Positions 2,085-48,000 are shown, counted from the stretch's first letter. The stretch: DNA of 64,000 nt from Candidatus Avelusimicrobium gallicola (GCA_020722185.1 DYLH01000005.1:269-64268), one strand, 5' to 3'. Notes: generated from the letters alone by a model not told the origin. Numbers and translations are program-made.

Positions 2085-3542
2085 ATGAGTGAAAAATCAA
2101 CCATTTTAAAGAATTCTTCAGCTCTGGCAGCTGTATCTTTTTTTTCAAAGTCTCTGGGCTACACAAGAGATGCTCTGTTTGCGTGGATATTTGGGGCAGT
2201 TCCAGCGACAGACGCCTATTATGCCGCAATGCGCTTTATAACTTTTTTCAGAAAAAATGCCTCAGAAAGCAATATAAATGCCTCTATAAGCCCTTTTTTA
2301 CATGAGAGCAAATCAAATATATCAGAATTTCGTTCTCAGCTCTCCTGCGCTGCTGCGGTAGCGGGGCTTATTGGTAGCGTGGCAGTATTTATTTTTTCAA
2401 GAGATATAGCATTCATAATGGCTCCGGGATTTGACTCAGCAAGAATAAGAACTACTGCCATCATTCTTTCAATAATGTCTATACAAATATTTTTCATATC
2501 CATAACATCTGTATGGCAATCTTTCTTGAACCATGAAGGAAGTTTCGCAAAACCAGCTCTTATACAAACATTATTTTCAATATCTGTTATTCTGTCAGTC
2601 ATAATGACAAGCAGAGCAAATACTGAAAAAGCATGTTTCATTGCCGCAACTGCCGGGACAGTTTCAGGATTGATTCAGTTTGCTCTTTTCAAAAAAGCTC
2701 TCAGAGAAAAAGAAATACGCATCTCTATAAAAATACCACAAAAAAACACTTTCAAAGCTTTAATTTCTTCTTTCTTTTCGATACTGCCCCTAAATTATGA
2801 CTACTTTTTTATAACAGTCAATCTTTTATTTTCAGCTTTTTTCCCCCAAGGAACCTTGACTGCCTTCTATAATGCGGCAAGACTCGCGCAATTTCCTCTT
2901 TCTCTAGCCTCTTCTCCAGCTGCTACAGCCGCAGCAGGAGAAATAGCTAAAAATGATTTTGATAAAAATTATATTCAAAGAGAAAAAAATTTTATAGAAG
3001 CGCTCAGAATATCCATCTTTTGGTCTCTCCCTGCCGCATTTGGACTTTACAGTATGTCTATGCCGATATCATCATTTTTATACCACAGGGGCGCATACTC
3101 AAATGAAGCAAATATTTTGACGGCGAAAGCCCTCGCCTTATTTTCAGTATCAATTCCATTCTACTCATTCAATAAGATTCTTATTTCTTTTTTTTACTCA
3201 GTAAAAAAAGAAAAACTAGCAATAAAATTCTTTTTTATATCGCTATTCGCTCTCTTTATTATTTCGATATTATTGCCTCAGAAAGAGACTTCTTCTCTCA
3301 TTTCCGCAGTTATAGTATCTATTGTTGGCTCCATTTGGGGTTTTTTTAAACTTAAGAAAAACTTCTCAATAAATTTACTCAAGATGTCAGTTTTTTTAAT
3401 TAAATGCATATTGGCTTCTTTGCTGGCCGTTTTCACTGCCACACAATTGCTTGGTTTAGGTTTAAGCATTATATTTTGCATATTAGGCGCAGTATTAATT
3501 TATTTTTCGGCTATGTCTTTTTTGAAAGAGGGACTTAAATGA
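2085..3542 (+). CDS. murJ: Lipid II flippase MurJ/MviN
   Basis: 485-aa polytopic membrane protein. N-terminus SKSLGYTRDALFAWIFGA is typical of MurJ. Divergent from rpsT, a common arrangement. Confidence 0.8.
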   Translation: MSEKSTILKNSSALAAVSFFSKSLGYTRDALFAWIFGAVPATDAYYAAMRFITFFRKNASESNINASISPFLHESKSNISEFRSQLSCAAAVAGLIGSVAVFIFSRDIAFIMAPGFDSARIRTTAIILSIMSIQIFFISITSVWQSFLNHEGSFAKPALIQTLFSISVILSVIMTSRANTEKACFIAATAGTVSGLIQFALFKKALREKEIRISIKIPQKNTFKALISSFFSILPLNYDYFFITVNLLFSAFFPQGTLTAFYNAARLAQFPLSLASSPAATAAAGEIAKNDFDKNYIQREKNFIEALRISIFWSLPAAFGLYSMSMPISSFLYHRGAYSNEANILTAKALALFSVSIPFYSFNKILISFFYSVKKEKLAIKFFFISLFALFIISILLPQKETSSLISAVIVSIVGSIWGFFKLKKNFSINLLKMSVFLIKCILASLLAVFTATQLLGLGLSIIFCILGAVLIYFSAMSFLKEGLK

Positions 3543-4843
3543 AAGTAAAACTTTCCACCCTTCCTGAAAATCCTGGAGTTTATATTTTTAGAGATCTATC
3601 CTCCTTGGTAATATATGTTGGCAAAGCGAAAAATCTAAAAAAAAGGATTTCAAGTTATTTCACTAAAACAGCTCTTGAGAGCTGGAAAACATCTTCCCTC
3701 AGAATGAGTGTTGAAAGAGTTGACTATATAGTGTGCGCGGGAGAAAGGGAAGCTCTTGTGCTTGAAAGAGAACTTATAAAAAAATACAGTCCATTTTTTA
3801 ATACTATATGGAAAGATAATAAAGAATACCCCCTGATTAAAATAACAAGAGAGCCTTTCCCAAGACTTATTTTCGTGAGAAAAAAAGAAAATGACAGGGC
3901 ACTTTACTTTGGGCCCTATCCAAAAGCTAGCATAGTAAAGAAAACTATTGCCAGATTGCAGCGATATGGCCTGATACAACTGAGAAAATGTTCATGGGAT
4001 TTCTCCCCCAAAAAGCCGCTTGAAGAGAAAAAAAGAATTGCCTGTCTATATTATCACACAGGTCAATGTCCATCTCCATGCGACCCTGAAAAAATCTCAA
4101 AAAGTGAATATCTCAGACTTGTCTCAAGAGCAGTCAAAATTTTGAAAGGAGATTATGAAAATGTCTTAAAGAATCTGCGCATAGAGATGAATGAAATGTC
4201 AGAAAAAATGGAATATGAAAAAGCGGCATACTTAAGAGATTGCATGAATGCCCTTTCACATATGGCGGAAGAAGTAAGCCTAAATGAGAAAACGGCGGAA
4301 GAACTATTAAACCGAGACAATCCATTTATAGAACTCAGGAAAATATTAGGACTAAAAAAAATACCTCTTCATATAGAAATTTTTGATATCTCAACTCTAT
4401 TTGGCAGATATGCCGTAGCCTCAAGTGTATGCTTTAACAGAGGCGAAAAAAACACCGCTCATTACAGACATTACAGGATAAAATTTAAGCCAGACAATAG
4501 GGGAGGAGATGATTTCAAGATGATGCTTGAAGCGGTCAGGAGAAGACTTAAAGAGATAAAAGAAAAAGGAGAATTGCCTCCAGACCTTTTTGTTATAGAT
4601 GGCGGCAAGGGACAACTTAAAATGGCCGCATCAGCCATAAGGGAGAGCGGACTTAAAATGGAAGTCATTTCTCTGGCAAAAAGATTTGAGGAAATATATT
4701 CTCTAGGTAAAAGAGAACCTTTCAAGCTGCCACATACCTCGCCAGCTCTTCTTTCTTTGAGGAAAATGAGAGATGAGGCTCATCGTTTTGCCGTATCATA
4801 TCACAGAAAAATAAGAGACAGAGAATTTTATGAAAAAAATTAA
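3539..4843 (+). CDS. uvrC: Excinuclease ABC subunit C, short form lacking the C-terminal (HhH)2 domain
   Basis: GIY-YIG motifs (PGVYIFRD, VIYVGKAKNLKKRISSYF, REALVLERELIKKYSPFFN). UVR motif YEKAAYLRDCMNAL. RNase H-like endonuclease region (LFVIDGGKGQLKMA). The protein ends at 434 aa, right after that region. Confidence 0.75.
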   Translation: MKVKLSTLPENPGVYIFRDLSSLVIYVGKAKNLKKRISSYFTKTALESWKTSSLRMSVERVDYIVCAGEREALVLERELIKKYSPFFNTIWKDNKEYPLIKITREPFPRLIFVRKKENDRALYFGPYPKASIVKKTIARLQRYGLIQLRKCSWDFSPKKPLEEKKRIACLYYHTGQCPSPCDPEKISKSEYLRLVSRAVKILKGDYENVLKNLRIEMNEMSEKMEYEKAAYLRDCMNALSHMAEEVSLNEKTAEELLNRDNPFIELRKILGLKKIPLHIEIFDISTLFGRYAVASSVCFNRGEKNTAHYRHYRIKFKPDNRGGDDFKMMLEAVRRRLKEIKEKGELPPDLFVIDGGKGQLKMAASAIRESGLKMEVISLAKRFEEIYSLGKREPFKLPHTSPALLSLRKMRDEAHRFAVSYHRKIRDREFYEKN

Positions 4844-5157: not shown

Positions 5158-7836
5158 TTACACACTAAAGCTTATTCTCTTATCTACAACTCTCTTTATT
5201 TTTCCTGTTCTTTTTATTCTTTCTATTGAATTTGGCGAAACAAGTTTAATTTCTGGCGCATCTATCCAGTTCATTTTTACACTTTCTCTTAAGTCCTCAC
5301 ACTTGTCGTAAAGTGCGCAATAGAATTTCTCTTTTATTTTTGTTTGAACGGAGTAATCAAAATCTTTTTTTGTTTCAATTTCTATCGTAAGTATATCCTT
5401 ATGCGCTTTCTTATCTATAATCACCCTAAAATTGAAGCTCAGTTCTTTCACAAGTCCTATTGCATTTTGTATATCATTGACAAAAAGATGCGCTCCACCA
5501 ACATGTATTCTGTCATCACAGCGACCAAGTATTTCAAACAAAGGTTCTTTTCTCCCACAAGAACACGGGCGCATTAGCCATCGACCCAAATCGCCAACTC
5601 TATAGCGAATTATAGGCATATGCTTCTTGTTGAGGCTTGTCACAACAAGTTCGCCTATTTCTCCATCTTTAACTGGCAAGCCTGTTTTTGGGTCTACAAA
5701 TTCTATGTACTGACTGTGCGCAAAGAGATGGTGCGCTCCTTTGGAAAGCTTACTACATTGAAAACCTATAACTCCGGCATCCGCTGTGGCATATCCGGCT
5801 GATTTCACAGAAACACCGGGAAAAACTCTCTCAAAAAATTTTACCATCTCATCGCCTACATATTCTCCACCATAAAAAATTTTAGATATCGGCAATTTTT
5901 CTTTAATTGAGTCCACATATTCAGCCATTTTTACAAGAAATGACGGCAGTCCTATTATGGAAGTCACAGAAAAATCTTTCATATACTTCACTATATTTTC
6001 AACCGGCAAATTGCTGCCTGTGGGCACTGAAATGGCTTTAGTGTATGCTATAGCCTTCTCGACAGAAAGCCAGCTAGACCATAAATTTCCAGCAACAAAA
6101 AGGTTGGCTATTACATCATTCTCGTCAAGTCCTGCCGCCTCATAAGCATAGGCCAACATTCTGCAAGTACGCTCATATTCGTGCTGATCATAAAAAACAT
6201 ATTTTGGCTGGCCCGTGGATCCTCCGCTTGCAAAATAAATGCCTCTTCTAGCCCTTGATGTCAAAAGCGCCTCGCTTTCTGGCGGAGTATTTTCCAAAAC
6301 ATGATGTTTTTCAAGAAATGGCAATTTGCTAAAACTTTTCAAATCCAAAACGGGAGGGCATTTTCTATAATAGTTTGAATAAAATTTGCTTTTTTCCTTG
6401 GCTAATTTCACAATCTCTATCAATCTGTCTTCATTCTTTGGCCTTCCCTCAATAGCCACCCAATTGACCATATTCATCATTGGGAAAACTCCGTCATGAG
6501 GAGAACCAGTCTTGCCCTCAAGCATATTTCCAAGAGAGACAAATCTTGCAAGATCCAAGTCAAAAAACTTCTCTAATACGGCTTTTTTTTCAATAATATT
6601 TCCGCCTATGCCAACGGTTTGCAAATATCCTCTATACGGGAGAAGTTCTTTTTTAACAGAGTCTAAATCTGGAGCTGTTTTAAGAAACAATACCCTATTT
6701 AGGGGAGAAATCCTATAGGCTGGATCTTTTTCTAATATCACAGTCCAATGAGAAGAAGGAAATGAATCTCTATAGTCAGCTTTTTTAAGCGCTTTATCAA
6801 CTTTAGCCAATTGTCTGTATTTTGTTATTTCTGCCTCCTCATCAGGGGTAAGCTTTCCCTGGGGAAGTTTTTTTTGGAAGTCTTCAAAAGCTTTCTGAAG
6901 TGTTTCAAGCAATTTTTCCGCCTTTCTCTCTGGAGATTTACTTGAAATTAAATAAATTGTGTGCATGTTTGAACATGCGGATTGATCCCACATAGCGCAG
7001 TCTTTTACAATCTTTTCTGAAATTTTTTCATACCCCTCTTTTTCAAGTTGACTTTCAAAAAGCAATCCAAAACTTGTTTTTGGGCCAAACACTTCAACTT
7101 TGACTCCCAGAGGAGCAATTTTTTTGTAAGATTCTACGGCTTCAGCTCCCCCCCAGACAAAAACAATGTTTGATTTTGAGACTATCTCTTTTTCCAATTC
7201 CTTTTTCCCACCGCCCCAATTCAATATTGCAAATGAGTCATAAATCAGCTTTTTTTCATCGGCCTCTTTAAGAGCTGAAGCAAAGATATTCAAAAAATTA
7301 GACCCCGATGAAGATAACTTCACAATATTGACATTTTTTGTAACCATACCTAAAAGAAGAGAGTCCAGTATGCCAAGAAACACATTCCCCGCGCCTATGT
7401 GTAAGGCTACACCTTTGGGCAAAGCCCTTATCAAACCATCGTAGCCATGCCTCTCCATAGGCACATCAACCGCATATGGGAAAAACATTTCCAGACTCAT
7501 TCTCTTTGAAATCTCGTTTTTAGAAAGAAGCGAAGGTATTATTTTAAGAGTTTCATCTATCATTGGTTGAGAGAAAGAAACCGTTTCTTTCAAATGAGAA
7601 TAGGCGGCTTTGTAAAATGGAGAATTCCTATCTGAGAATTTATGCCCCACTTTTGACAATACAGAAACTATATAATCTCTAGGAGTTGAAAATAGTTTCT
7701 CCCTTCTTTTTTGAGCCTCAATTCCAAGAGCCTTTATCTCCTCAATAGTCCAATAATCTTTATTTGTTTCCTGGCCAAATATATAAGTATTTTTTATTTC
7801 CATATTCAAAGCATTTGAGAAGCGCTGACTGCGCAT
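5158..7836 (-). CDS. Fusion protein: LuxC-like acyl-CoA reductase (N-terminal) plus PaaK/F390-synthetase-like adenylate-forming enzyme (C-terminal)
   Basis: N-terminal half has HIGAGNVFLGILDSLLLGMVTKNVNIVKLSS and WDQSACSNMHTIYL, which look like the LuxC/ALDH-type catalytic Cys region. C-terminal half has FASGGSTGQPKYVFYD (AMP-forming P-loop), then YATADAG and RYRVGD. Alternative start ATG at 7803 (M12) lies 2 nt after the upstream stop. Confidence 0.6.
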   Translation of the reverse strand: MRSQRFSNALNMEIKNTYIFGQETNKDYWTIEEIKALGIEAQKRREKLFSTPRDYIVSVLSKVGHKFSDRNSPFYKAAYSHLKETVSFSQPMIDETLKIIPSLLSKNEISKRMSLEMFFPYAVDVPMERHGYDGLIRALPKGVALHIGAGNVFLGILDSLLLGMVTKNVNIVKLSSSGSNFLNIFASALKEADEKKLIYDSFAILNWGGGKKELEKEIVSKSNIVFVWGGAEAVESYKKIAPLGVKVEVFGPKTSFGLLFESQLEKEGYEKISEKIVKDCAMWDQSACSNMHTIYLISSKSPERKAEKLLETLQKAFEDFQKKLPQGKLTPDEEAEITKYRQLAKVDKALKKADYRDSFPSSHWTVILEKDPAYRISPLNRVLFLKTAPDLDSVKKELLPYRGYLQTVGIGGNIIEKKAVLEKFFDLDLARFVSLGNMLEGKTGSPHDGVFPMMNMVNWVAIEGRPKNEDRLIEIVKLAKEKSKFYSNYYRKCPPVLDLKSFSKLPFLEKHHVLENTPPESEALLTSRARRGIYFASGGSTGQPKYVFYDQHEYERTCRMLAYAYEAAGLDENDVIANLFVAGNLWSSWLSVEKAIAYTKAISVPTGSNLPVENIVKYMKDFSVTSIIGLPSFLVKMAEYVDSIKEKLPISKIFYGGEYVGDEMVKFFERVFPGVSVKSAGYATADAGVIGFQCSKLSKGAHHLFAHSQYIEFVDPKTGLPVKDGEIGELVVTSLNKKHMPIIRYRVGDLGRWLMRPCSCGRKEPLFEILGRCDDRIHVGGAHLFVNDIQNAIGLVKELSFNFRVIIDKKAHKDILTIEIETKKDFDYSVQTKIKEKFYCALYDKCEDLRESVKMNWIDAPEIKLVSPNSIERIKRTGKIKRVVDKRISFSV

Positions 7837-8972
7837 CCTTTAAGTTTTTTTACTCCCGCCCTTCCTTTCACCACAAGCACAGGGCCTTTCAATCCACAAG
7901 GACATTTTTCTTCAATACTCCCCCAATCACTTGAAAGCAGAGACAATGATGGATATGAAGTCAGATATGGCGTCATAAACTGAAGAAGCCCAACTTCGCC
8001 AAAAGGCATAGGTTTAAGCGATATGGGATGCCTTGGAATAACTTTTCCATATATTGGTATATGAAAATTTCCAAACTTGCAATCCACATATGGAACTCCA
8101 TGCTCAACCATACCGAAAAGATCTCTGACATTTTCCTGTGAAATCCCAAGGTTGTCCGCAAGTATTTTTCTGTAAATTTTTTTATCTATTGCTTCATTAG
8201 CCAGAGTCTTCCAACCGCCTCCGGTTATTACAAAAGAGACTGGATTTATTTTTGGATAAGAGCCAAATCTTTTCTTGTACTCCTCAGTCAGCTTTAAAAC
8301 AAAAGCAGGGAAACCTATGAGACGTAGCGACTTTTGGCTAATTTCACAATCTCGCAACTTTTCAATAGAAGCCTCTATATCGAAATAAAATTCTTTTTTT
8401 ACCTCACTCCACTTAAAGGCATAAAATACTTCTCCAGCCTTTGTAAATGATGTCAACAATTTGTCAGTCCACGCAGTCCCCACATCTTTGGCAACATTGG
8501 GATCATATGTCAGGCATATATAGTCATATTCCCTATCCATATCGCAAAGACCAAGCGCGTCAAAAACATTCCACGCCATACGCCTGACTCTTAGCAATGA
8601 CCCCATGTCTAGTTGCATTCTGCTAATTTGCCCGCTTGTGCCGCTTGATTTCAATTCAAGAACCATTTCTTCTTTTTTAAGAAAAGCTAGGTCTCTTTCT
8701 TTTAGAGCATTTACAGAAATAAAAGGGAATTCAGCTTTTGAGTAATCATTCACCTTTTCAATATCAAAGCTATGTGTTGTGAAATAAGCTCTTAAAAAAG
8801 ATGAGCTTTTTAACTGTATCCTGAATGCTTCTTTCATTGCCTCAAGAAAAGCTTTTTTGTCCTCAACAGAATAAGAAAAAGGATTTCTATCAATGAACTT
8901 ATCTAAAACGGCGCTGGATTTTAATGGTCTTGAAGGATGAGGAAGCTTTCTTTCTATTTCAAGTTCTTTCAT
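7806..8972 (-). CDS. LuxE-like acyl-protein synthetase / adenylate-forming enzyme
   Basis: LKSSGTSGQISRM adenylation motif near residue 108. Size and layout are typical of the LuxE family. Overlaps both neighbours. Confidence 0.55.
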   Translation of the reverse strand: MKELEIERKLPHPSRPLKSSAVLDKFIDRNPFSYSVEDKKAFLEAMKEAFRIQLKSSSFLRAYFTTHSFDIEKVNDYSKAEFPFISVNALKERDLAFLKKEEMVLELKSSGTSGQISRMQLDMGSLLRVRRMAWNVFDALGLCDMDREYDYICLTYDPNVAKDVGTAWTDKLLTSFTKAGEVFYAFKWSEVKKEFYFDIEASIEKLRDCEISQKSLRLIGFPAFVLKLTEEYKKRFGSYPKINPVSFVITGGGWKTLANEAIDKKIYRKILADNLGISQENVRDLFGMVEHGVPYVDCKFGNFHIPIYGKVIPRHPISLKPMPFGEVGLLQFMTPYLTSYPSLSLLSSDWGSIEEKCPCGLKGPVLVVKGRAGVKKLKGCAVSASQML

Positions 8973-10149
8973 TTTGGAAAACCACTTCTATATAATTTTC
9001 TCTCCAAAGTTTCAAATATTCTTTTAGAATATTTCTGTAAAGAGATATTATCTTCACATTTCTAAAATCCAATATGTCAAATGTTCTGGAAAAAGCTATG
9101 CAGTCATATCTCTTATTGCCTACTTTCTTTGCGCAAGGAAAATACCCAGTTGGGATAAATCTTGCATCTATTGCCATTCTTTGATATAGGGGATGATAGG
9201 CATCTATCAATATTTCCAGATAAGCCATATTCATTTCCCTCAGCTTACGCGCCGCGCTTTCGAGAACCACAACTGGATCTTTATCTGTGAAGCCGCCCAT
9301 GATAACGCTATATTTGTCCTTTGGATAATAGTGAAGATAAAGTTCTGTATTTCCATCTTTTGACACAAAAATAAGATTAGGATCATGGAATGGCATATAA
9401 GTAGACTTAAAAAAATCTCCGTGACTAATCTGCTTAAATCTCCTTTTCACAAATTCAGAAGCTGTGATTACTTCAAGTTCAATAACTGGTATTTTCTGTT
9501 TTTGATCGCTAAAATCTGTTTTGACATTTTCAACTTTAGGTTTGTCCAAATGCATCTGTTTTAAAACTATCTCATAAAAAGGCAAAACTTCTGGTATTAT
9601 ATTCGGGTGAGGTTTTCTTTTCTTTAATGAACTTTCTGTGTAATACGCGGTAAGGCAATGCGTTTCATTGTCATATACCTTATGTGTATTTGGGAAAATC
9701 CCAAGTTTTACAAAGCCAAGGCTATCTGTAAGTCGCTGTGGCGCAGAGCTTGCCGTTCTTGTTGTGGCATAAACAACATCCACTAAATTTCTCTTTTGGG
9801 TTATATCATCAAGCACCAACTTCATCATTATATAGGCTATATCATGCTTTCTAAATTCCATACTTACCACAGCGCCAAAAGCTTTTGAGAGCCTATCTTT
9901 CAAGTCCATGGCATAGACAAGACTGCCTATTATCCTTCCCTTGCACTCCGCCACAAGCCAGTAATAATTGTCGTTCTCTATGGCGGAACGCATTTTATCC
10001 CTATCCGTTATCAAGCTGACTGAATAAGAAGCGCCATATATCTCAGTATAAAGCATCTGTATTCGCCTCATATCCTGAGTTTTGGCAAGCCTTATTATCA
10101 CTTGGCCCTTGTCAGGCAGTTCTACTACCTTTTCTATTTTTTCCCTCAT
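8959..10149 (-). CDS. GNAT-family acyltransferase with a second GNAT-like C-terminal half
   Basis: N-terminal ~170 aa has GNAT layout (WLVAECKGRIIGSLVY...FRKHDIAYIMM...SLGFVKLG). 14-nt overlap with the LuxE-like gene. Confidence 0.55.
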   Translation of the reverse strand: MREKIEKVVELPDKGQVIIRLAKTQDMRRIQMLYTEIYGASYSVSLITDRDKMRSAIENDNYYWLVAECKGRIIGSLVYAMDLKDRLSKAFGAVVSMEFRKHDIAYIMMKLVLDDITQKRNLVDVVYATTRTASSAPQRLTDSLGFVKLGIFPNTHKVYDNETHCLTAYYTESSLKKRKPHPNIIPEVLPFYEIVLKQMHLDKPKVENVKTDFSDQKQKIPVIELEVITASEFVKRRFKQISHGDFFKSTYMPFHDPNLIFVSKDGNTELYLHYYPKDKYSVIMGGFTDKDPVVVLESAARKLREMNMAYLEILIDAYHPLYQRMAIDARFIPTGYFPCAKKVGNKRYDCIAFSRTFDILDFRNVKIISLYRNILKEYLKLWRENYIEVVFQNERT

Positions 10150-10227
10150 GATTTATATTCTACCAAAATACAAGCTTTGATTTTTTGACCACAAAATATA
10201 TAATAGTATTTCCATGAGGTAAAAAGT

Positions 10228-10959
10228 ATGATAAAAGTCATATTTAATTTTCTCTTGTTTACTTTTATTTTCTCATTTTTCACATCCTGCGCTTCCTTTA
10301 AAACTATGGATCCTTTCCCTAGGAAAATAATTTATCAGGCCTCAAATGACAAAGAAAAAAGACCTTTTTCAAAAATACTTGTAAGATGGAGAAACTTTCC
10401 ACTTTTGACATTTCAAAATACCATTGGATATACAGATGAAGAAAAAGCCAAAATAAAGCCAGAAGAAGTTCCTTATAGTCATTACATAAAGTTCAAAAAA
10501 AGGATCATAAAAGCTTTCAAAGAGACTGGTTTATACGATGAAAAAAATGGAAAAGGCACGGTTAAAATTGATCTGACTTCTTATGGGAGGTGGACATATG
10601 GTGATCTGACAAAAAGTTTTTTGACTGAAACTTCATTCATATACATACTGCCGCAATCTCTTAAAGTAAACTATCATATGAAAGTTGAAATAGAAAGAGA
10701 AGGGCAGACAAAAAGCGCAGAAGAATTTTCATATATAAAAACCACTTTCCATCTTCTAATTTTCCCTCTTTATCCTTTTTCAAGTTTTTCTTCCGCTGAG
10801 AGAGGAATACTAAAAAATATGGCATGGAAAGCTGTAACAGATGCATATTCATTGGATAAAGGAATAGAAATAGAAAAGAAAAAATTTGACGATTTTTCAG
10901 AAAAAACCCAAAAAAAGCAGAAAGTAGAGAAAACAGAAGAACAAAAACAAGACTACTAG
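10228..10959 (+). CDS. Hypothetical lipoprotein with K/E-rich C-terminal tail
   Basis: Signal peptide plus lipobox (FSFFTSC). No recognisable catalytic motif. Confidence 0.5.
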   Translation: MIKVIFNFLLFTFIFSFFTSCASFKTMDPFPRKIIYQASNDKEKRPFSKILVRWRNFPLLTFQNTIGYTDEEKAKIKPEEVPYSHYIKFKKRIIKAFKETGLYDEKNGKGTVKIDLTSYGRWTYGDLTKSFLTETSFIYILPQSLKVNYHMKVEIEREGQTKSAEEFSYIKTTFHLLIFPLYPFSSFSSAERGILKNMAWKAVTDAYSLDKGIEIEKKKFDDFSEKTQKKQKVEKTEEQKQDY

Positions 10960-11041
10960 CCTGAAAATTTCAGTTGCAAGAAGGACAGATATAAAGCGCT
11001 ACAGCGAATAAGCGTGAAAGAGCGGCATTGTAAAAATAACT

Positions 11042-11080
11042 TTAGAACTTATGAAATTGCGAACTAATGCACTTTTTCAC
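11042..11080 (+). repeat. Intergenic repeat TTAGAACTTA-Y-(GAAATTGC)-GAACTAAT-N4-TTTTTCA, copy B
   Basis: TTAGAACTTATGAAATTGCGAACTAATGCACTTTTTCAC aligns with 24521-24550 (TTAGAACTTACGAACTAATATAGTTTTTCA), differing by an 8-nt insertion. Both copies lie just 3' of the stop codon of a minus-strand gene. Confidence 0.6.
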
Positions 11081-11086
11081 TGTCCT

Positions 11087-14000
11087 CTACTTCAGTATCA
11101 TGTCTGCCTGAGACTTTAATTCCTGATTCATTTCAATAGCTTTTTGAGTAAATATCTTCGCTTCTTCCTTTTTACCCATTTTCACATAAGCTCTGGCAGT
11201 GTTAATAAAAATATTTTCGTCGTATGGATCCAGAGTGGATGCCTTCTCATAATACTCAGCAGCCTTTGCGTATTCTCCTTTTATAAAGAAGACATTGCCA
11301 AGATCATTTATCACAGCTGAATTATATTCATCTTTTAAAAGAATTTCATTGAATATCTTCTCAGCTTCTTCAAGTTTCCCATAACCGCTATAGAGAATTC
11401 CCAGATTTATGTAAGCGGATAAATCATTAGGATCACTCTTTATCCCTTGCATATAGAGATTTTCATAAAAAGAGAATCTTTTCTCAGACAGTAAATCCAG
11501 TTCTTTGGCAATATCTTCATATGTGGATTCTGTGGAAAGCTTGAATTCATCAGACATATCGGGCAATGTCACCGGCTCAAATTTTGACATAGCTTTATCT
11601 AAATCCACAACTTTGACATTGTCTTTGGCATTCTTATACATATCAGCCGCATATTTTACGGATTCATAAAAACTCTTGCCAAGCATTGTGGTCTCAATAG
11701 GGACATAATACCTGTTCTCATACCTTATTATGAGTTCATCTGGAAGACCAACCTCACTTATTTCCTGAGCTTTTGTCTCAAACATCACAGCAATGTGCCC
11801 CGGATAGTCAAGTATTTTTACCACAGCCCCTACAGACTCAAACATGGTGGCAAAAAGAACAGTTAAATCATCACAATCTCCGCTTTTCAACTTAAGCGTA
11901 TTGCGCGGGAACTGAACAGTATCTGTCAGGATAGAGTCTGAACTTTTAACTGAGGTGTATGGATTTGACGGATCAGGGATATATGAAATTGGATATTTAG
12001 ATAGATTGTGCCATATTATTGTAGCCATTATGACACTGTCGTCAAAGCCTTTCTTATTGTCAAACTTTGACTTCTGCGCCAGCATAGCTCTTGAAAAAGC
12101 GTATACTGGCGGATCTTTTACAGTGACAAAATTTGCTATCCTTTCAGTATTATCCCATGTTATGGCGTTTTTAGACAGTATCTTTATTGGTTTGTTTATA
12201 AGACTCTGATTTTCTTTCCCATCCCTGTAGTATGAAACAGTAAGCTGCGCCTGTACCGGGGTATCTTCGTTTATGGTAAGTATTCTATTATTTAGCGTAG
12301 CTTTGAGCTCCACATATGAAGATGACATTGACTTAAGTTCCGGGATTATTATGTCGCTTGGGAAATCCATATAATCCTTAAGGAAAAAAGACACTTTCAC
12401 ATTGCTGAAATTTTCTTCGGTATTATTTTTAACCAAAACTTTGCCCACTGGATTGTCTATATAGTATTTGTAATTAGCAGAGAATATGTAATTGAGCTCA
12501 ACAGGTACTATTTCTACCGGCGGTTTATTTTTAAAACTCTCATCGCTTTCAACAACTGGCTCTTCAACTTTCTTTTTTATTCCTTCGAAGTAAACACTCG
12601 CTATATCAGAAAAAATCTCATCATTTTTGCCAGAAGATGCAATTCTGTAGTAAAATGTTCCTTCATCTTTGAGAGAAGAATCAGTCCATGAGACAGTTTT
12701 CACACTGTCCACCTTTTTCAAACCATCTGGACTTTTACCCTTGTATATATCAAACTTTTTCACAAAGGAAGAGTTTGCAACTGTCCATGAAACTTCAACT
12801 GAATCAGAGCTAATCTTTGCTGAAACATTTTCAGGTTTTGGCGGAAAATAGACCATATCATATGAAGCTAATTTTGAATTTGCTGGATCTGAAACGAAAA
12901 GTTTTTCTCCATAAATTCTCACAATAGTTGGCTCATAAAATTCCATTTTTCCATGTCCTTTGGCAAAAAAGGATGAAATATAATTTCCTTTTTTACCATA
13001 AACCGATACATTAGACTTTTCCCTGTCGAGAAAATAGAAGTATCCCATACCATCGTAGTCAAAAGAGACGGGTTTCGACAAAGCTGATATATCCCATGAA
13101 TTTATATACTTTCCATTTGAGTCAACTACTATAACTTTTTTAAGTTCCGAGTCTAAAATGTAAAGGGTATTGTTCTCATCCACCTTTACATCGGAAGGTT
13201 TTAGCAACTTAATGCCACCTATTTCTGGCCCTACGGTAAATAGAAAAATGCCATCCTTATTAAAAGCCTGCACCATAGAAAAACCAGAGTCTGCCACATA
13301 AATTTTTCCATTCAAATCGCAGGCAATTGACACAGGAGAGCTAAATTTTCCCTCTTTATTTTTTTCTAAAAATCCGACTTTCCCTCCAAAGAAAGAGTTA
13401 TATTTGCCATCTTTTGAAAAAATTTGAACCCTGCCATTTCCAGTATCGGACACATACAACTTACTTGAGTTAAAAACCATATCAGCTGGATCTTTTACAG
13501 AACCTTCGGCTTCGCCATATCCTAAAAACGCTTTTTTAGATTCCCCGGAAATTAAATATACCTTTTTATCTTTTTTGTCATAGTAAGAAAGAGAGTCGCC
13601 CAAAAAGGCAAATGAATGAGCAGAAATCGGGTATGAATTTGAAGGGTTTAGTTTTAAAAGGCTATATTCTTGCGCTTCAGATAATTTATCTAAGTGTTTA
13701 GAGTTTTCCAGTTTGAGAACCATTATTTTCTTGTTTTTAGGATCCAAAATTATAAGATCGCCATTCTCATCAACTTCAAGATCTGCAAATGAAAGAAATT
13801 CAAATTTAGCTCTGCCTTTTGTGCCAAATGAGCTTATATCAGAAAAATCTCTATCTAATTCCTTCACCTTTCCATCCTTATTCCATGCCAGGTATATCAA
13901 GCCATAGTCATTCACAGCCAAAGCAGATGAAGCAATATTTTTTTCAGATTCCAATCTGCCATTCAGATCATATTTTTGAATCAACTTTGAATTTGAATCT

Positions 14001-14536
14001 GACACATAAATGAATCCACTTCTGTCAATGTAGATATTAGAAGGAGATATTTTCTTTAAGCCATCTCTGCTGACAAGTGGAAATCCGTAAAGATAAATCC
14101 CGTTTGAATCAAAGACCTCTATTTTTGACGCGCCTCTATTTGCTATGTAAACCTTCCCATTGAAAAATTTAATATCCGAAGGATCAGATAGTTGTCCATT
14201 TTCCTTGCCTTTGGCTCCGAAAGAAAAAAGAAACTCCCCTTTAAGAGAATAAACACTTATGAGAGAAGAATGACAATCAAGCACATAAATTTTTTCTTTA
14301 CTTGCTGTGATAGAGCAATAAGATCCCGAGGGCAATGTCGTTTTAGAAACAAAAGTAAATGATGAGTTATAAACAGAAATTTGATCCTTAGAAAGCACAT
14401 AAAAAAGATTATTTTCTTTGGCAACTGACACAGCAGAAGATATTGTAGAATCACTTATCTGTCCTATGAAATCTATCTTTTCATAAGCTGAAATATTTGA
14501 AACAAAAAAAGAAATGACAAAAACAAAAAAATTCAT
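11087..14536 (-). CDS. Secreted multidomain protein: NHL-repeat beta-propeller(s), FN3, transglutaminase-like cysteine protease core, TPR
   Basis: Signal peptide present. Repeated NHL units (DPSDIKFFNGKVYIANRGASKIEVFDSNG; DPADMVFNSSKLYVSDTGNGRVQIFSKDG; SPVSIACDLNGKIYVADSGFSMVQAFNKDG). FN3-like PENVSAKISSDSVEVSWT...GTFYYRIAS. Transglutaminase core KSGDCDDLTVLFATMFESVG...GHIAVMFE. C-terminal TPRs (GKLEEAEKIFNEIL, GEYAKAAEYYEKA). Confidence 0.65.
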   Translation of the reverse strand: MNFFVFVISFFVSNISAYEKIDFIGQISDSTISSAVSVAKENNLFYVLSKDQISVYNSSFTFVSKTTLPSGSYCSITASKEKIYVLDCHSSLISVYSLKGEFLFSFGAKGKENGQLSDPSDIKFFNGKVYIANRGASKIEVFDSNGIYLYGFPLVSRDGLKKISPSNIYIDRSGFIYVSDSNSKLIQKYDLNGRLESEKNIASSALAVNDYGLIYLAWNKDGKVKELDRDFSDISSFGTKGRAKFEFLSFADLEVDENGDLIILDPKNKKIMVLKLENSKHLDKLSEAQEYSLLKLNPSNSYPISAHSFAFLGDSLSYYDKKDKKVYLISGESKKAFLGYGEAEGSVKDPADMVFNSSKLYVSDTGNGRVQIFSKDGKYNSFFGGKVGFLEKNKEGKFSSPVSIACDLNGKIYVADSGFSMVQAFNKDGIFLFTVGPEIGGIKLLKPSDVKVDENNTLYILDSELKKVIVVDSNGKYINSWDISALSKPVSFDYDGMGYFYFLDREKSNVSVYGKKGNYISSFFAKGHGKMEFYEPTIVRIYGEKLFVSDPANSKLASYDMVYFPPKPENVSAKISSDSVEVSWTVANSSFVKKFDIYKGKSPDGLKKVDSVKTVSWTDSSLKDEGTFYYRIASSGKNDEIFSDIASVYFEGIKKKVEEPVVESDESFKNKPPVEIVPVELNYIFSANYKYYIDNPVGKVLVKNNTEENFSNVKVSFFLKDYMDFPSDIIIPELKSMSSSYVELKATLNNRILTINEDTPVQAQLTVSYYRDGKENQSLINKPIKILSKNAITWDNTERIANFVTVKDPPVYAFSRAMLAQKSKFDNKKGFDDSVIMATIIWHNLSKYPISYIPDPSNPYTSVKSSDSILTDTVQFPRNTLKLKSGDCDDLTVLFATMFESVGAVVKILDYPGHIAVMFETKAQEISEVGLPDELIIRYENRYYVPIETTMLGKSFYESVKYAADMYKNAKDNVKVVDLDKAMSKFEPVTLPDMSDEFKLSTESTYEDIAKELDLLSEKRFSFYENLYMQGIKSDPNDLSAYINLGILYSGYGKLEEAEKIFNEILLKDEYNSAVINDLGNVFFIKGEYAKAAEYYEKASTLDPYDENIFINTARAYVKMGKKEEAKIFTQKAIEMNQELKSQADMILK

Positions 14537-42032: not shown

Positions 42033-45000
42033 TTACCTGGCCTTATTTTTATATTCAGCAATAGTCCTTGTAAGTTCAAGACGCAAATTCTCTATTTCAG
42101 ACTGACGCTTGGCATATTCTCTTTCAAGATCCAATCTTCTGGTCTCAAGCTCTCTTTCTCTCTTTTCAAACTCTTCAGCTTTCCTTGCGTTTTCCTTATC
42201 AATCTCAGTTAATTTTTCTTGAAGTTTTACTTCCATTTCATTCAAGCGAGACTGCTTCAATGAAAGCATAGAGTCTTTTGCCGACATATTCTTTTCCATT
42301 TCTTCAATGGTCTGCTGCATCTGTGCTACCCTCTTATTGTACAATTCTTTAAGGGAGTTATTTTCCTGGATAAACTTTTCTTCCATAGCAGCCTGCTCTG
42401 CTCTGTAAGAGGCGAGAGTTTCTGAAAATCTCTTTTCCTCTTGCGCCAAATGTTGCGCAAGCATAGAAGAATAGTTGTCTCTGTATTTAGATATTTCCTC
42501 TTTAAGTTTTTCCATTTTCTCTTCAGCTTCTTTCATAGCAGCATCCTTTTCAGCTAAAACACTAAGCATTCTTTCCTTATCTGCTTTGTAACTTTCTCTC
42601 ATCTTTTCTATTTCATACACGCTTCTTTCATTAAGCTCTACTAATTCTCTTTGGGTGATATCCAACTTTTCTTCAAGCATAGCAGTCGCTCTTGAAACGG
42701 CTTCTGCCAATCTTTTATTAAAATCCTTTGACATTGAATCTACAATTTGAGCTTTTTCCTGAGAGAATTCTTTCGCCATTTCAACAGCTTCCTGTGTCAG
42801 TTGAGATTCTCTTTCTTTTGATTGTATCAATTCGGCGCTTAAAGCCGATATTCTCTCTTTTAGAGAAGACGATTCCTTTCTTAAAGAATCTTCTTTCATA
42901 CTAAATTCTGATTTTATATCTTCTATCTGAGACTTCATAGAATTTTCCAAATCAGCTTTGGCTTTTTTATACTTTTCTGCATATATCTCAGCTTGTTTTC
43001 GAGAAACTTCATTTTGGAAAGATTCCATTTTTTCATCCATTTCCCTTTGAAAAGCAGAAAGTCTCTCAGAAAGAGATTTTATTTCTTCATCTTTTGAATT
43101 AAGTATTCTGAAACTCTGGCTCAATTCCTCCTCATAGGCTAGGATCTTATTATTAAGAGATTCAGTTTCTGCTTTGACCTGTTTTTCTATCCTTTGAGAA
43201 AATTCCGACTCCATTTCAGCTTTCTGCTGAGCAAGAAGTCTTCTTGAATTTATTTCCAGATCCGCAAGTTTGCTGGATAAATCTTTGTTCTCTTCAATAG
43301 CGCTGGCTAGTTTTTCTTTTACTTGACCTAATTCAAAAACAGCCGCATCTGCTATTTTTTCAAGATGCTCTTTTTCTTTACCCCAATTAATTCTTTCCTT
43401 ATCATACACTTCCTTATGCATTTCAAGATTTTGCTGATATTCCTGCTCATATTGTTTTTTTATATCTTCAATTTTAGACTTCGATTCTTCTCTAATCTCT
43501 CTTATAGAAACTTCATTTTCCTGTTTGTATTTTTCAGAAATTTTCCTTAATCTGAAATCAAAATCTTTTTCCCTTGACAAAATTTCACTGCGAAGCCTTT
43601 CTATTTCTTCATTTAGGCTATTTGTTTCTTTAACCCTGAGAACTCTCTCTTTTTCCTTTTCAGATTTAAGCTCATCCATCTCTTTTTTCATCTGAGAATA
43701 AAAAAGATTCTTTTCTTCCTGAATTTCTTTTTTTCTATTTTCAAATTCAAGAGATATTAGCCTTATTTTTTCAGCATAATCTTGAGACAATGAATTTCTT
43801 AAAGAATTTTCACTCTCTCTATGTTTTACTTCAAGAGATTCAATAGCCTCACGGAACTCAATATCTTTATCTGTAAGTTTTTTCTCATAGTCTTTTATAA
43901 TATCCTCATATTTTTTTTCTATTTGAGCTTTTTCCTCTTCAAGAGATAAAGCTCTGGCCTGATATTCCTGCTCCCTTTGAGAAATTTGTTGTCTGAGATG
44001 ATCCGATATTGCGGCTTTTTCTTGTGAAAATTTCACAAACAAATCTGATATCTTGCTCTCATATTCAGAAACCATTTTTTCATACTTATCTTTTTCTTCT
44101 TTGAGAGCCACTTCATCTTTTTGTTTAAGTTCAGAAATCAATTTTTCATATTCAGATTTGAGTTTCTCGGAATTCTTCTCAAAATCTTTCGTAAGAGAAA
44201 GGATTATTTCCTCTTTATCTTTTAAGAGAGCTGATAGAGTAGCATCTTTTTGCGCTATCTCATTATCAAAAGATTTTGAAATTTCTTTTCTTTTAGTTCT
44301 TTCATTTTCAAGCAAAATCATCATTTCATTTTCATACTTTGACTTTGCTTCTTCATAAGTGGCTTTTAAATTAGCTACCTTTTCCTCAAAACGTTTTCTC
44401 AAATTCTCCATTTCTTTATTGTGCCTTTCTTCTATTTCTTTTTCACGCTCATTAAAATTTGCCATTAGTTGATTTTTTAATTCTTCTTTTTCCGCTGAGA
44501 CTAATTTAAGCTTTTCATTTATTTTGTTTAACTTTTCCTCGTAATCTGCCTCAATAGCAGTTTTCTCTTCTTCATATTTCATCAAAATATCGTCTTTCTC
44601 AGCAGAAGCTTTTAGCAAAACATCTCCCATAGCTTGCCAAAAAGATTGTCTCATTTCTTCTTTTTGTTGAGAAATTTTTTCAATTTCTTTTTCCCATTTA
44701 AGAGCGCTTTCCTGATTTTCTTTTCTAAGGTTTATGATGGCTTCATCTTTTTCTTTACTAATACTTGATATCTTAGACTCATAAAAAGATATCCTCTCGC
44801 TGATTTTATCTTCTAAAGATTTTTTCTCTATTTCCATTTGATTTTTTAAGTTCTCAATGGAATTTTTCAAATCGGTTCTCTCTTTGTCAAATTCTGACTC
44901 TTTTATGGATAAAGTCTCCTGCCATTGACTATTTGTCTTTTCAATCTTTTCTCTAAGCTCTTTTTCTTTTTTATTAAGCAATTCTTCAAGCTCTTTTATC

Positions 45001-48000
45001 TTTTCACTTCTTGCCACCAGCTCCCCGGAATATTTCTTTTCGTATTCACTTCTAAGGCTTAGATTCTCACCTATAAACCTCTCTTCCATCTCTTTCTTCT
45101 CAGCTTCAAAGCGAGATTTTATCTCTTTTATCTTATCGCTATTTACCGCCTCTTTTTGCTCAAGTTCTAAAATTAATTGCTTTTCCCTCTTCTCATATTC
45201 AGCTTTTATATCTTGTATCTGACTCGCAAATTCGCTTCTGGCCTTCTCTAGTTCTAGCGAATATTCCTTCTCTTTCTTAGCTATATCTTCAGACAGCTTT
45301 CTTACTTCAACCTCTTTGCCTAAAATAGCATTCTCATAATCCGCCTTAATCAATGAAAAAGAATTCTTAAGCTCTTCATTCGCTGACAAAAGCTCACTCT
45401 CCCTATGTGAAAACTCTTTCCTTAAATCCCCTAAGGCTTTTTCACGCTCGGCTATAAAGCGGCTCTCTGTCCTAGAAAGAAGTTCTTGCATCTCTCCAAT
45501 CCTTTTTTGCGCATTCTCTATCCTTGCAATATATGTCGCGGCTATTGAAGCTTTTTCTTCTTCGTTTTCACTTCTCACCGCGGACAGCTGTTCAAGATAA
45601 TAATCCTCTTTGGCTTTAAGCGCTGACTCCATATCTTCTCGATACTTCTGCGATAACTCATTCTTCTCTTTGATCAGCTCATTCTTTAATTCCTCTATCT
45701 TGTCTTCATATTCTTTATTTAATAAACCTATCTTCTCAATAAGAGAATTTTTCTCTGTTTCTATCTTCTCTTTATTTTCCTCTATCTTTTTTAACTTTAT
45801 CTCAAAATTCTTCTCTTTTTCCTCAAGCGCCTGGGACATCTTCTGCTCAAATTCTGACTCTTTTATGGATAAAGTCTCCTGCCATTGACTATTTGTCTTT
45901 TCAATCTTTTCTCTAAGCTCTTTTTCTTTTTTATTAAGCAATTCTTCAAGCTCTTTTATCTTTTCACTTCTTGCCACCAGCTCCCCGGAATATTTCTTTT
46001 CGTATTCACTTCTAAGGCTTAGATTCTCACCTATAAACCTCTCTTCCATCTCTTTCTTCTCAGCTTCAAAGCGAGATTTTATCTCTTTTATCTTATCGCT
46101 ATTTACCGCCTCTTTTTGCTCAAGTTCTAAAATTAATTGCTTTTCCCTCTTCTCATATTCAGCTTTTATATCTTGTATCTGACTCGCAAATTCGCTTCTG
46201 GCCTTCTCTAGTTCTAGCGAATATTCCTTCTCTTTCTTAGCTATATCTTCAGACAGCTTTCTTACTTCAACCTCTTTGCCTAAAATAGCATTCTCATAAT
46301 CCGCCTTAATCAATGAAAAAGAATTCTTAAGCTCTTCATTCGCTGACAAAAGCTCACTCTCCCTATGTGAAAACTCTTTCCTTAAATCCCCTAAGGCTTT
46401 TTCACGCTCGGCTATAAAGCGGCTCTCTGTCCTAGAAAGAAGTTCTTGCATCTCTCCAATCCTTTTTTGCGCATTCTCTATCCTTGCAATATATGTCGCG
46501 GCTATTGAAGCTTTTTCTTCTTCGTTTTCACTTCTCACCGCGGACAGCTGTTCAAGATAATAATCCTCTTTGGCTTTAAGCGCTGACTCCATATCTTCTC
46601 GATACTTCTGCGATAACTCATTCTTCTCTTTGATCAGCTCATTCTTTAATTCCTCTATCTTGTCTTCATATTCTTTATTTAATAAACCTATCTTCTCAAT
46701 AAGAGAATTTTTCTCTGTTTCTATCTTCTCTTTATTTTCCTCTATCTTTTTTAACTTTATCTCAAAATTCTTCTCTTTTTCCTCAAGCGCCTGGGACATC
46801 TTCTGCTCAAATTCTGACTCTTTTATGCGCAGTCTTTCATTTAACTCAAATATCTCATTTTGTTTAGCTAAAATCTCTTCCTCAAATTTTTTTGAAAGAT
46901 TTTCAATCCTTTGCTGATATGACTTTTCGCTCTCTACACGCATATCTTCCATAGCTTTTTGAGAAGATTCAATGCTTTTCTGATATTCCTTAAGCAATCT
47001 TTCTTTTTCCTGAGCATACTTCATTTCTATTTCATGAAGAGTCTCTCTGAGTTTTTCATTTTCTTGATTGAGTCTGCTTCTTTCTGCCTCAAAGGCACTT
47101 TTGTCGCTTATAAATTTTTGCTCTGTTTCACTGATTTTTAATATCAGCTCCTCGTCAAATCTTTTTTTGATTTCTATTATCTTATTTTCAAGATTTTTTA
47201 TCTGTTCTTGAGCCTGCCAGTATTTTTCAGCCATTTCTTTTGCGCTTTCTTCAAGTCTTGCTCTCTCTTTATCCCATGCCATATGCAAAGACTTTATTTC
47301 TTTTTTTCTCTCTTCCTCTATAGACATAAGCCTATTGTTCATATTAAAAGCAAGACTCTCTTTATACTTCTCATAAGCCTGAGAGACTTCTTCTTTTTTT
47401 GCTATGTACTCAGCTTCCAAAGCCGCCTGTCTATTTTTTATCCATTCTTCTTTCTCTTTTGCAGAATTTTCCAGAAAATTTACTCTCTCCATAAGCTCTT
47501 TTTCTCTATCTGAGTATGAAGCCTGAAGAGATGAAATTCTCTTATCATAGGATCTCTGAAGCTCAATATTCAGCTCATCATATTTTTTCTGAGCTTCTGC
47601 AAGTTTTTGTGAGTACTGGCTTTCAGTTTCAAGCAGACGCCTATTCCAGTTTTCAACCATATTTTTTTGAGATTTATCCAGCTCTTCAAATTTTTTCTGA
47701 TAGTCATTCTCAAGCTCGCGTCTGAGTATATCTATTCTGGCCTCTTTTTCAATAAGTTGTCTCACATCCAGTTTGCCCTCTCCAAGCAACTGCATTGTGG
47801 CTTCAAGTTTCCTGTAAAATTCTTCCTTATCTTCAACAGTTTTTATCCTTGCGGAAAATGAATCGCGGATATTTTCAAGTTTTGCGGATAACTCTTTATT
47901 TGAATTTTCAGCTATTTCAAGATTTTTTCTCAATTCAGAGCCTTCTTTTTCCATTCCTGAAATCTTTTCCAAAGCCCAACGCAAGGTCATTTTTGCTGTA

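Follow-up and report, generated by a model that had tools for sequence, protein, structure and literature searches.

Leupeptin and other peptide aldehydes are in wide use as protease inhibitors. The genes leupABCD, together with the gene for a major facilitator superfamily (MFS) transporter, reportedly make up the leupeptin operon of Klebsiella michiganensis/oxytoca, Photorhabdus, and Xenorhabdus, as Li et al. are said to have described in 2020 (Angew Chem 59:17872). The listing of this biosynthetic gene cluster (BGC) names an MFS transporter, a LuxE/PaaK-family acyltransferase, an acyl-coenzyme A (acyl-CoA) reductase, a PaaK-family ligase, and a GNAT, and PMC11212599 presents the route as independent of nonribosomal peptide synthetases (NRPSs), with separate AMP-dependent ligases forming the amide bonds and a reductase forming the aldehyde. 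Descriptions of this NRPS-independent route have so far come from Gammaproteobacteria, and the Klebsiella pathway also yields a pyrazinone that is reported to be active in bacterial signaling and on a host receptor. Here we analyzed a stretch of 64,000 nucleotides from the uncultured Elusimicrobiota bacterium Candidatus Avelusimicrobium gallicola (GCA_020722185.1, DYLH01000005.1:269-64268; referred to as the window, with positions counted from its first nucleotide), in which three adjoining minus-strand genes encode a tandem GNAT, a LuxE-like acyl-protein synthetase, and a fusion of a LuxC-like reductase to a PaaK-type adenylating domain (LuxC::PaaK). We propose, with a probability of roughly 0.6, that this cassette is a minimal relative of the leup operon and would make a short N-acyl peptide or amino-acid aldehyde without an NRPS, a proposal that draws on homology and on analogy to characterized enzymes.

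Comparison with the leupeptin operon

A genuine leup locus was sought with the published forward primer of leupA, which was used to scan metagenome contigs. In the locus retrieved (L088), the leupA forward and leupB reverse primers lie exactly 1,235 bp apart, matching the amplicon size published for them, and L088 is a genuine Klebsiella leup locus. It encodes an MFS transporter, LeupA (LuxE family, 378 amino acids), LeupB (803 amino acids, LuxC plus AMP-binding domain), LeupC (PaaK-like, 446 amino acids), and LeupD (GNAT, 305 amino acids). LeupB is itself a LuxC::PaaK fusion, and the fusion of the window is collinear with it over both domains (26% identity over 764 amino acids, E = 1e-68), including the catalytic cysteine, the P-loop, and the A10 lysine. 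The LuxE-like protein of the window and LeupA share 31% identity over 361 amino acids (BLASTP, E = 1e-62), and their tail cysteines are aligned (KGCAVSAS in the window and RSCALAAS in LeupA). Homology of the window GNAT to LeupD is confined to the N-terminal domain (BLASTP E = 1e-4, hhalign probability 96.5%). Both systems would follow the same NRPS-independent logic of N-acylation, adenylate-forming ligases, and reduction of a thioester to an aldehyde. Judged by homology, the cassette is a stripped-down three-gene relative of the leup operon, and the type of system is already known. The first-pass annotation of this DNA had suggested that the genes form a compact route, free of NRPSs, that leads to an N-acylated aldehyde or alcohol, and this logic is upheld by the homology to leup; the possibility raised there that the genes belong to a characterized pathway proved half true, in that the set of modules is of the leupABCD type while the three-gene variant in the window is distinct and is conserved in many phyla.

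Several points weigh against assigning the cassette to leupeptin-like chemistry. Identity to the Leup proteins is only 26 to 31%, and the window falls into a separate clade of a rough neighbor-joining tree. Of the five components of leup, LeupC and the MFS transporter are missing: tblastn searches across the 64-kb window with LeupC and its Massilia paralog matched only the fused adenylating domain, and no homolog of the Klebsiella or Massilia MFS transporter was found in the window or among the operon neighbors. The window GNAT has 396 amino acids in two domains, of which only the N-terminal one is common to the 305-amino-acid LeupD, and its CoA-loop is degenerate (RKHDIA). Moreover, the assignment of Leup enzymes to individual steps comes from module counting and from secondary citations, and the ligases could be iterative or differently ordered. 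Finally, the cassette is located among housekeeping genes and is apparently inherited vertically in Elusimicrobia, so that its product could be a metabolite with a physiological role instead of an inhibitor like leupeptin. The gene order of the window also differs in beginning with the GNAT, and its host is an uncultured bacterium, whereas the leup hosts are gammaproteobacterial pathogens. Because the window is without LeupC and the MFS transporter, has a different GNAT, and belongs to a separate clade, its product is expected to be shorter than, or different from, leupeptin.

Five-gene clusters composed of a PaaK ligase, an MFS transporter, a tandem GNAT, LuxE, and LuxC::PaaK occur on Streptomyces linear plasmids and in Massilia. 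They share with the window the tandem-GNAT family (25 to 37% identity), the LuxE-like protein, and the fusion, but, unlike the window, they still have a LeupC-like ligase and an MFS transporter, and on the tree they fall in with Klebsiella LeupB. Two Streptomyces linear plasmids (NZ_CP109501 and NZ_CP034351; positions 6249 to 13882 of locus L085 and 6405 to 13822 of locus L086) carry complete leup-like clusters of this kind, comprising a PaaK ligase, MFS transporter, tandem GNAT, "acyl-protein synthase," and an 845-amino-acid "acyl-CoA reductase" fusion; their annotation is generic, and the fusion carries a "bioluminescence" Gene Ontology (GO) term. These clusters bear on the making of leupeptin-type aldehydes in actinomycetes, for which the literature gives NRPS routes.

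Peptide or acyl aldehydes also arise by NRPS-reductase and carboxylic acid reductase (CAR) routes (antipain, flavopeptins, livipeptin, and CAR), whose overall chemistry is that of the proposed one: ATP activates the substrate, a thioester is formed, and NAD(P)H serves to reduce it to the aldehyde. They differ in their domains: with Pfam, carrier protein (PP-binding, the site of phosphopantetheine), condensation, and SDR-type reductase domains were not detected in the three window proteins, in which the cysteine of the LuxE tail would stand in for the carrier arm. The leupeptin route of Streptomyces roseus and the livipeptin route of S. lividans were considered as models and set aside, being reported as NRPS or tRNA dependent and unrelated to the cassette. 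The acyl-acyl carrier protein (acyl-ACP) reductase TabE of Streptomyces was likewise discarded as only a distant ALDH-like analog.

Families and catalytic residues of the LuxE-like protein and the fusion

The LuxE-like protein matched PF04443 over its full length (E = 7.5e-41), and the fusion matched LuxC (PF05893, E = 1.1e-61, amino acids 55 to 459) followed by AMP-binding (PF00501) and AMP-binding_C_2 (PF14535) at about amino acids 466 to 887. These searches support the LuxE-like and LuxC::PaaK assignments made at first pass, and the motifs quoted for them (SSGTSGQ, HIGAGN, WDQSACSN, and SGGSTGQPKY) are all present. In comparisons with protein structures, the LuxE-like protein aligned end to end with P. 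phosphoreum LuxE (7xc6_E, phmmer E = 2e-22) with GGGWK and KGC in register, and the fusion matched PaaK (4r1l, E = 1.6e-38) and LuxC (7xc6_A, E = 3.5e-22). According to the paper on the LuxC-LuxE structure (PMC9157457), the key features of this complex are the lysine of the LuxE GGGWK loop, the acyl-carrying cysteine of the C-terminal TRxxKGCxLS motif, and the active-site cysteine of LuxC. The window proteins belong to the same families as those of the Lux LuxC-LuxE(-LuxD) system (PDB 7XC6): the LuxE-like enzyme is without the ANL C-terminal subdomain and has both GGGWK and the C-terminal KGC cysteine, and the active-site cysteine is present in the LuxC domain. Across LuxE-like proteins, Klebsiella LeupA included, the tail cysteine and the GGGWK loop are each kept in 85/87; across 72 fusions, the LuxC cysteine is invariant (72/72), and the adenylation P-loop lysine (69/72) and the A10 lysine (70/72) are nearly so. 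Because these key cysteine and lysine residues are conserved across homologs, both adenylating modules and the reductase look catalytically competent, and a Lux-type cysteine-to-cysteine relay has likely been retained, by analogy.

The same features could be read as those of a Lux-type fatty acid reductase, in which LuxE and LuxC would turn a fatty acid into the aldehyde or alcohol needed for lipids or a signal, the PaaK domain would serve as a second acyl-CoA feed, and the GNAT would make an N-acyl lipid. The strong Pfam matches to LuxC and LuxE are consistent with this, the cysteines and the GGGWK loop are those used in myristate reduction, and LuxC accepts acyl-CoA in vitro according to the literature. 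However, both proteins missed the NCBIfam equivalog cutoffs by far (LuxC NF052251, 118.8 versus 750; LuxE NF052244, 107 versus 550); they and the PaaK-type domain are members of these families and not orthologs of the named enzymes. The LuxE-like protein scored 193 bits against LeupA (BLASTP) versus 83 bits against real LuxE (phmmer), a comparison that is rough across different programs. The LuxC domain is, furthermore, fused to a full PaaK-type ligase and coencoded with a GNAT, and the sole characterized system with the same fusion yields a peptide aldehyde. Neither LuxD nor luciferase nor lipid genes were found in the operon or among the about 45 window open reading frames (ORFs) scanned with Pfam, which likewise contained no flavin reductase, as the first-pass annotation had stated; in 80+ related loci, LuxD and luxAB were also missing, judged by gene order. 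We therefore regard a fatty acid reductase as unlikely, and the enzymes probably act on something other than a fatty acid. The Lux and fatty acid framing given to the locus at first pass is probably misleading because of the rough difference between the LeupA and LuxE scores and the missed equivalog cutoffs, and the fatty aldehyde-derived lipid or signal offered there as an alternative has found no specific support.

A further alternative starts from the fused adenylating domain alone. In a CAR-like route, PaaK would make an aryl- or short-chain acyl-CoA that the fused LuxC domain would reduce to the aldehyde, with LuxE and the GNAT being accessory or unrelated. The adenylating domain is most similar to phenylacetate-CoA ligases, its C-terminal subdomain and A10 lysine are kept, and the fusion to LuxC would permit channeling. 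PaaK-type NCBIfam models matched the fusion with an E value of 9e-53 but far under their equivalog cutoffs (NF041878, 179 versus 700 bits; TIGR02155, 149 versus 646 bits), and by this measure the domain is PaaK-like at the superfamily level only. In addition, a CAR-like route leaves unexplained the invariable coinheritance of LuxE and the tandem GNAT in a fixed order, and in leup the same fusion serves peptide-aldehyde synthesis. We consider this route very improbable.

Domain structure of the tandem GNAT

The Pfam model GNAT (PF00583) matched the 396-amino-acid protein marginally (E = 3.7e-4, amino acids 36 to 146), and the C-terminal half, searched together with five remote homologs, matched no Pfam family even at an E value of 10. 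A profile comparison of the N half with the C half was insignificant (E = 0.024). The full-length AlphaFold (AF2) model has a predicted local distance difference test (pLDDT) score of 86 and two alpha/beta domains; Foldseek matched it to single GNATs and, over about 400 columns, to tandem GNATs such as MAB_4324, the closest folds being RimJ/RimL-type protein N-acetyltransferases. When modeled alone with AlphaFold, the C half adopted the GNAT order of strands and helices, and its top 50/50 PDB matches in Foldseek were GNAT acetyltransferases. Of the two GNAT halves proposed in the first-pass annotation, the N-terminal one corresponds to the marginal Pfam match, while the second holds as GNAT-like at the level of its predicted fold only. 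A FemX- or L/F-transferase-like, aminoacyl-tRNA-dependent role of the protein was also considered and appears less likely, as no such structures were among the top Foldseek matches.

The window GNAT is 62 to 85% identical to 29 sampled Elusimicrobia homologs, with both halves strongly conserved, and an exhaustive search gave a tandem-GNAT family of 378 representatives at 50% clustering. In L005, L006, and L013 (metagenome-assembled genomes [MAGs] of Deltaproteobacteria, Planctomycetota, and Elusimicrobia), tandem GNATs occur without LuxE or LuxC::PaaK within the available flanks; this acyltransferase family is therefore not exclusive to the cassette. Two adjacent tandem-GNAT genes are found in two Thermoplasmata archaea (L036, 7926 to 10392; L065, 2442 to 4851) and also in L008, L009, and L015. 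Some family members (P0302, P0342, and P0373) carry a fused N-terminal MFS transporter, one example being a 668-amino-acid protein of Streptomyces lasalocidi, and in a Massilia locus (L034, 9160 to 10380) an MFS gene lies between the GNAT and LuxE genes. Such fused or interleaved arrangements suggest that acylation and transport are coupled.

Distribution and conservation of the cassette

Scanning one genome per GTDB species with a 12-sequence profile of distant GNATs yielded 80 loci, which were combined with loci fetched earlier or later into a set of 87 and scored with the four modules of the window. The order GNAT, LuxE, LuxC::PaaK is contiguous in 66/87 loci, and every complete locus has LuxC and PaaK as a fusion, confirming that the genes are conserved together, a point for which a neighborhood survey had been suggested at first pass. 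The closest homologs are all found in Elusimicrobiota MAGs, among them a 396-amino-acid protein with 100% identity, and the proteins are about 60 to 66% identical across most of the Elusimicrobia homologs found. In the neighborhoods of homologs with 47 to 60% identity, the trio is kept while the flanks differ. Beyond Elusimicrobia, hosts are found in Muiribacteriota, Riflebacteria, Cloacimonadota, Bdellovibrionota, WWE3, Thermoplasmata archaea (with two GNAT genes), Massilia, and Streptomyces, whose plasmid loci were recovered by tblastn. This shows that the cassette is conserved in Elusimicrobia plus at least eight further lineages, most of them uncultured, and its occurrence in archaea and in WWE3, of the candidate phyla radiation (CPR), implies interdomain transfer.

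On the rough neighbor-joining tree, the fusions split into two groups. One contains Klebsiella LeupB, the Streptomyces and Massilia fusions, and those of two groundwater Elusimicrobia loci; all of these loci have an MFS gene, and a complete stand-alone LeupC-like ligase is present in the Klebsiella, Streptomyces, and Massilia loci. The other, larger group consists of three-gene cassettes, the window included, from Elusimicrobia, Riflebacteria, Muiribacteriota, Bdellovibrionota, Cloacimonadota, WWE3, and Thermoplasmata archaea. The stand-alone ligases form a clade of their own, apart from the fused PaaK domains, and occur only in loci of the Klebsiella, Streptomyces, and Massilia type. Apart from the MFS and LeupC genes of the leup-type clade, no neighbors conserved across phyla were found.

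The conservation within Elusimicrobia would also fit a housekeeping function in which the cassette modifies a macromolecule or an envelope component, such as a protein N terminus, peptidoglycan, or a glycan. The level of identity among Elusimicrobia homologs, a gene tree that clusters by lineage, the housekeeping neighbors, and the lack of an exporter in most three-gene loci all agree with this idea, as do the RimJ/RimL-type folds nearest to the GNAT and the luxC/luxE homologs found in Aeromonas flagellin-glycosylation islands. However, the flanking genes differ between lineages, the spread over unrelated phyla and archaea is patchy and resembles horizontal gene transfer (HGT), and related versions include MFS exporters. 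The Aeromonas islands, which were compared by gene content, were set aside as a model, since luxC and luxE have other partners there (ACP, ketoreductase, AMP-ligase, and glycosyltransferases). Modification of a macromolecule thus appears improbable. The three alternatives are less well supported than a leup-like function, in favor of which we count the retention of the cassette as a unit amid changing flanks in many phyla; the MFS exporters added to related loci, and the MFS-GNAT fusions, point to a secreted small molecule.

A possible route to an N-acyl dipeptide aldehyde

In the leup-like route that we propose, the tandem GNAT would N-acylate a first amino acid from an acyl-CoA, as its modeled fold would allow. 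By analogy with leupeptin biosynthesis, the PaaK-type domain would then adenylate the carboxylate of the acylated amino acid and couple it to the amine of a second one. The LuxE-like enzyme would adenylate the terminal carboxylate and load it as a thioester onto its own Cys380, from which the acyl group would pass to Cys288 of the fused LuxC domain for NAD(P)H-dependent reduction and release of the free aldehyde. The motifs for these last two steps are present, and the chemistry assigned to them is borrowed from the structure and biochemistry of LuxC-LuxE. In leup, three adenylating modules would form two amide bonds and activate one carboxyl group for the reduction; the window has two such modules. 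Given two modules instead of three, the most parsimonious and simplest prediction for the product is an N-acyl dipeptide aldehyde, whose probable role would be to inhibit proteases or to give rise to a pyrazinone-type signal.

A broader interpretation, possible although doubtful, sees in the three-gene clade more than an abbreviated leupeptin pathway and is that of an ancient, mainly vertically inherited Elusimicrobia system, present also in Riflebacteria, Muiribacteriota, Bdellovibrionota, CPR/WWE3, and Thermoplasmata, which would make N-acyl amino or dipeptide aldehydes of an unrecognized class for physiological use, with a two-domain GNAT that does more than simple N-acetylation. If true, such uses might be, e.g., as endogenous protease regulators, as predation or defense molecules, or as pyrazinone-type signals.

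Locus layout and neighboring genes

The three minus-strand ORFs and their junctions were confirmed as first annotated (Table 1). The GNAT and LuxE-like genes overlap by 14 nucleotides, and the fusion gene either overlaps the LuxE-like gene by 31 nucleotides, if it starts at the ATG at 7836, or follows the LuxE stop after a gap of 2 nucleotides, if it starts downstream at Met12. Since homologs of the fusion are about 880 amino acids long and begin at the equivalent of Met12, often overlapping the LuxE stop by 4 nucleotides, the downstream ATG is probably the real start. A scan of the locus for promoters and terminators gave match counts equal to chance expectation, with only weak sigma-70-like matches upstream of the GNAT gene; the divergent promoter region annotated there stands as an intergenic region, its promoter signals being no better than chance. 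For this reason, the case for an operon is built on the gene overlaps and on their conservation in contiguous order across loci.

Table 1 Features of the cassette and its surroundings in the window
Feature	Position (nt)	Strand	Size or remark
Tandem GNAT gene	8959-10149	-	396 aa
N-terminal GNAT domain	9673-10095	-	About aa 19-159
Degenerate CoA-loop motif RKHDIA	9835-9852	-	
C-terminal GNAT-like domain (predicted fold)	8962-9612	-	About aa 180-396
LuxE/LeupA-like acyl-protein synthetase gene	7806-8972	-	388 aa
LuxE-like P-loop SSGTSGQ	8628-8648	-	
LuxE-like GGGWK loop	8208-8222	-	
LuxE-like tail cysteine Cys380	7833-7835	-	In KLKGCAVS
LuxC::PaaK fusion gene, longest ORF	5158-7836	-	892 aa
LuxC::PaaK fusion (LeupB-like), probable extent	5158-7803	-	About 881 aa, start ATG 7801-7803
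LuxC reductase domain	6460-7674	-	
LuxC catalytic Cys288	6973-6975	-	
PaaK-type adenylating domain	5176-6441	-	
PaaK P-loop SGGSTGQPK	6202-6228	-	
PaaK A10 lysine Lys879	5200-5202	-	
Divergent intergenic region	10150-10227		78 bp, upstream of GNAT gene; presumed promoter region, by position alone
Putative lipoprotein gene, divergent	10228-10959	+	243 aa, family unrecognized
NHL/TPR protein	11087-14536	-	1149 aa

The divergently encoded putative lipoprotein had no match in Pfam or NCBIfam. Its homologs adjoin the cassette in 28 Elusimicrobia loci, and homologs of the NHL/TPR protein do so in 27, while neither was found beside the cassette in other phyla. This synteny is either specific to the lineage (Elusimicrobiales) or a sign of an accessory function, and the lipoprotein is at most a candidate member of the system.

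Other neighbors recur in subsets of loci. In two deep-branching Elusimicrobia loci (L001, 10664 to 15393; L003, 4298 to 9035), the cassette is directly followed by genes for a 280-amino-acid protein without a family and a MutS_V-domain protein, the latter recurring near the cassette in L014 and L021, and also by genes for lysine/ornithine aminomutase-like alpha and B12-binding subunits. This adjacency may be due to chance, or these genes may supply a diamino acid as a building block. A stand-alone response-regulator receiver gene lies less than 5 kb from the cassette in seven loci (L043, L009, L016, L019, L024, L038, and L057), in the first of which (13053 to 13475) it starts 7 nucleotides after the fusion gene. 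Seven other loci have a similar hybrid histidine kinase near the cassette, such as the upstream copy in L025 (5854 to 7836). A regulatory link to these two-component neighbors is possible; such domains are common.

The ORFs scanned in the window are housekeeping or polysaccharide-biosynthesis genes. One of them, at 3539 to 4843 on the plus strand, encodes a UvrC homolog of only 434 amino acids with GIY-YIG, UVR, and RNase H-like endonuclease domains, in which the usual C-terminal helix-hairpin-helix region is apparently absent; its gene overlaps the stop of murJ and the start of ogt. On the minus strand, an ORF of 2006 amino acids (42033 to 48053) without a Pfam family, where GC and AT skew are strongly negative (about -0.3), adjoins a polysaccharide export and biosynthesis locus (Wza-like, Wzz/tyrosine-kinase-like, Wzy, flippase, and GT4 glycosyltransferases) and possibly encodes a giant surface protein.

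Implications

The literature searched contained no paper linking Elusimicrobia or the three-gene architecture to leupeptin-like chemistry. As far as can be told, the three-gene variant, which is characterized by the lack of LeupC and of a transporter, a two-domain GNAT, a deep separate clade, and a broad occurrence in uncultured phyla and archaea, has not been described. At about 5 kb, the cassette is small and can be synthesized and expressed to discover products of unculturable organisms, and it represents a natural experiment on how the number of ligase modules sets peptide length in such assembly lines. The presence of a three-gene relative of leup across a candidate-rich phylum as well as in archaea and CPR suggests a far wider occurrence of this chemistry than reports so far indicate.

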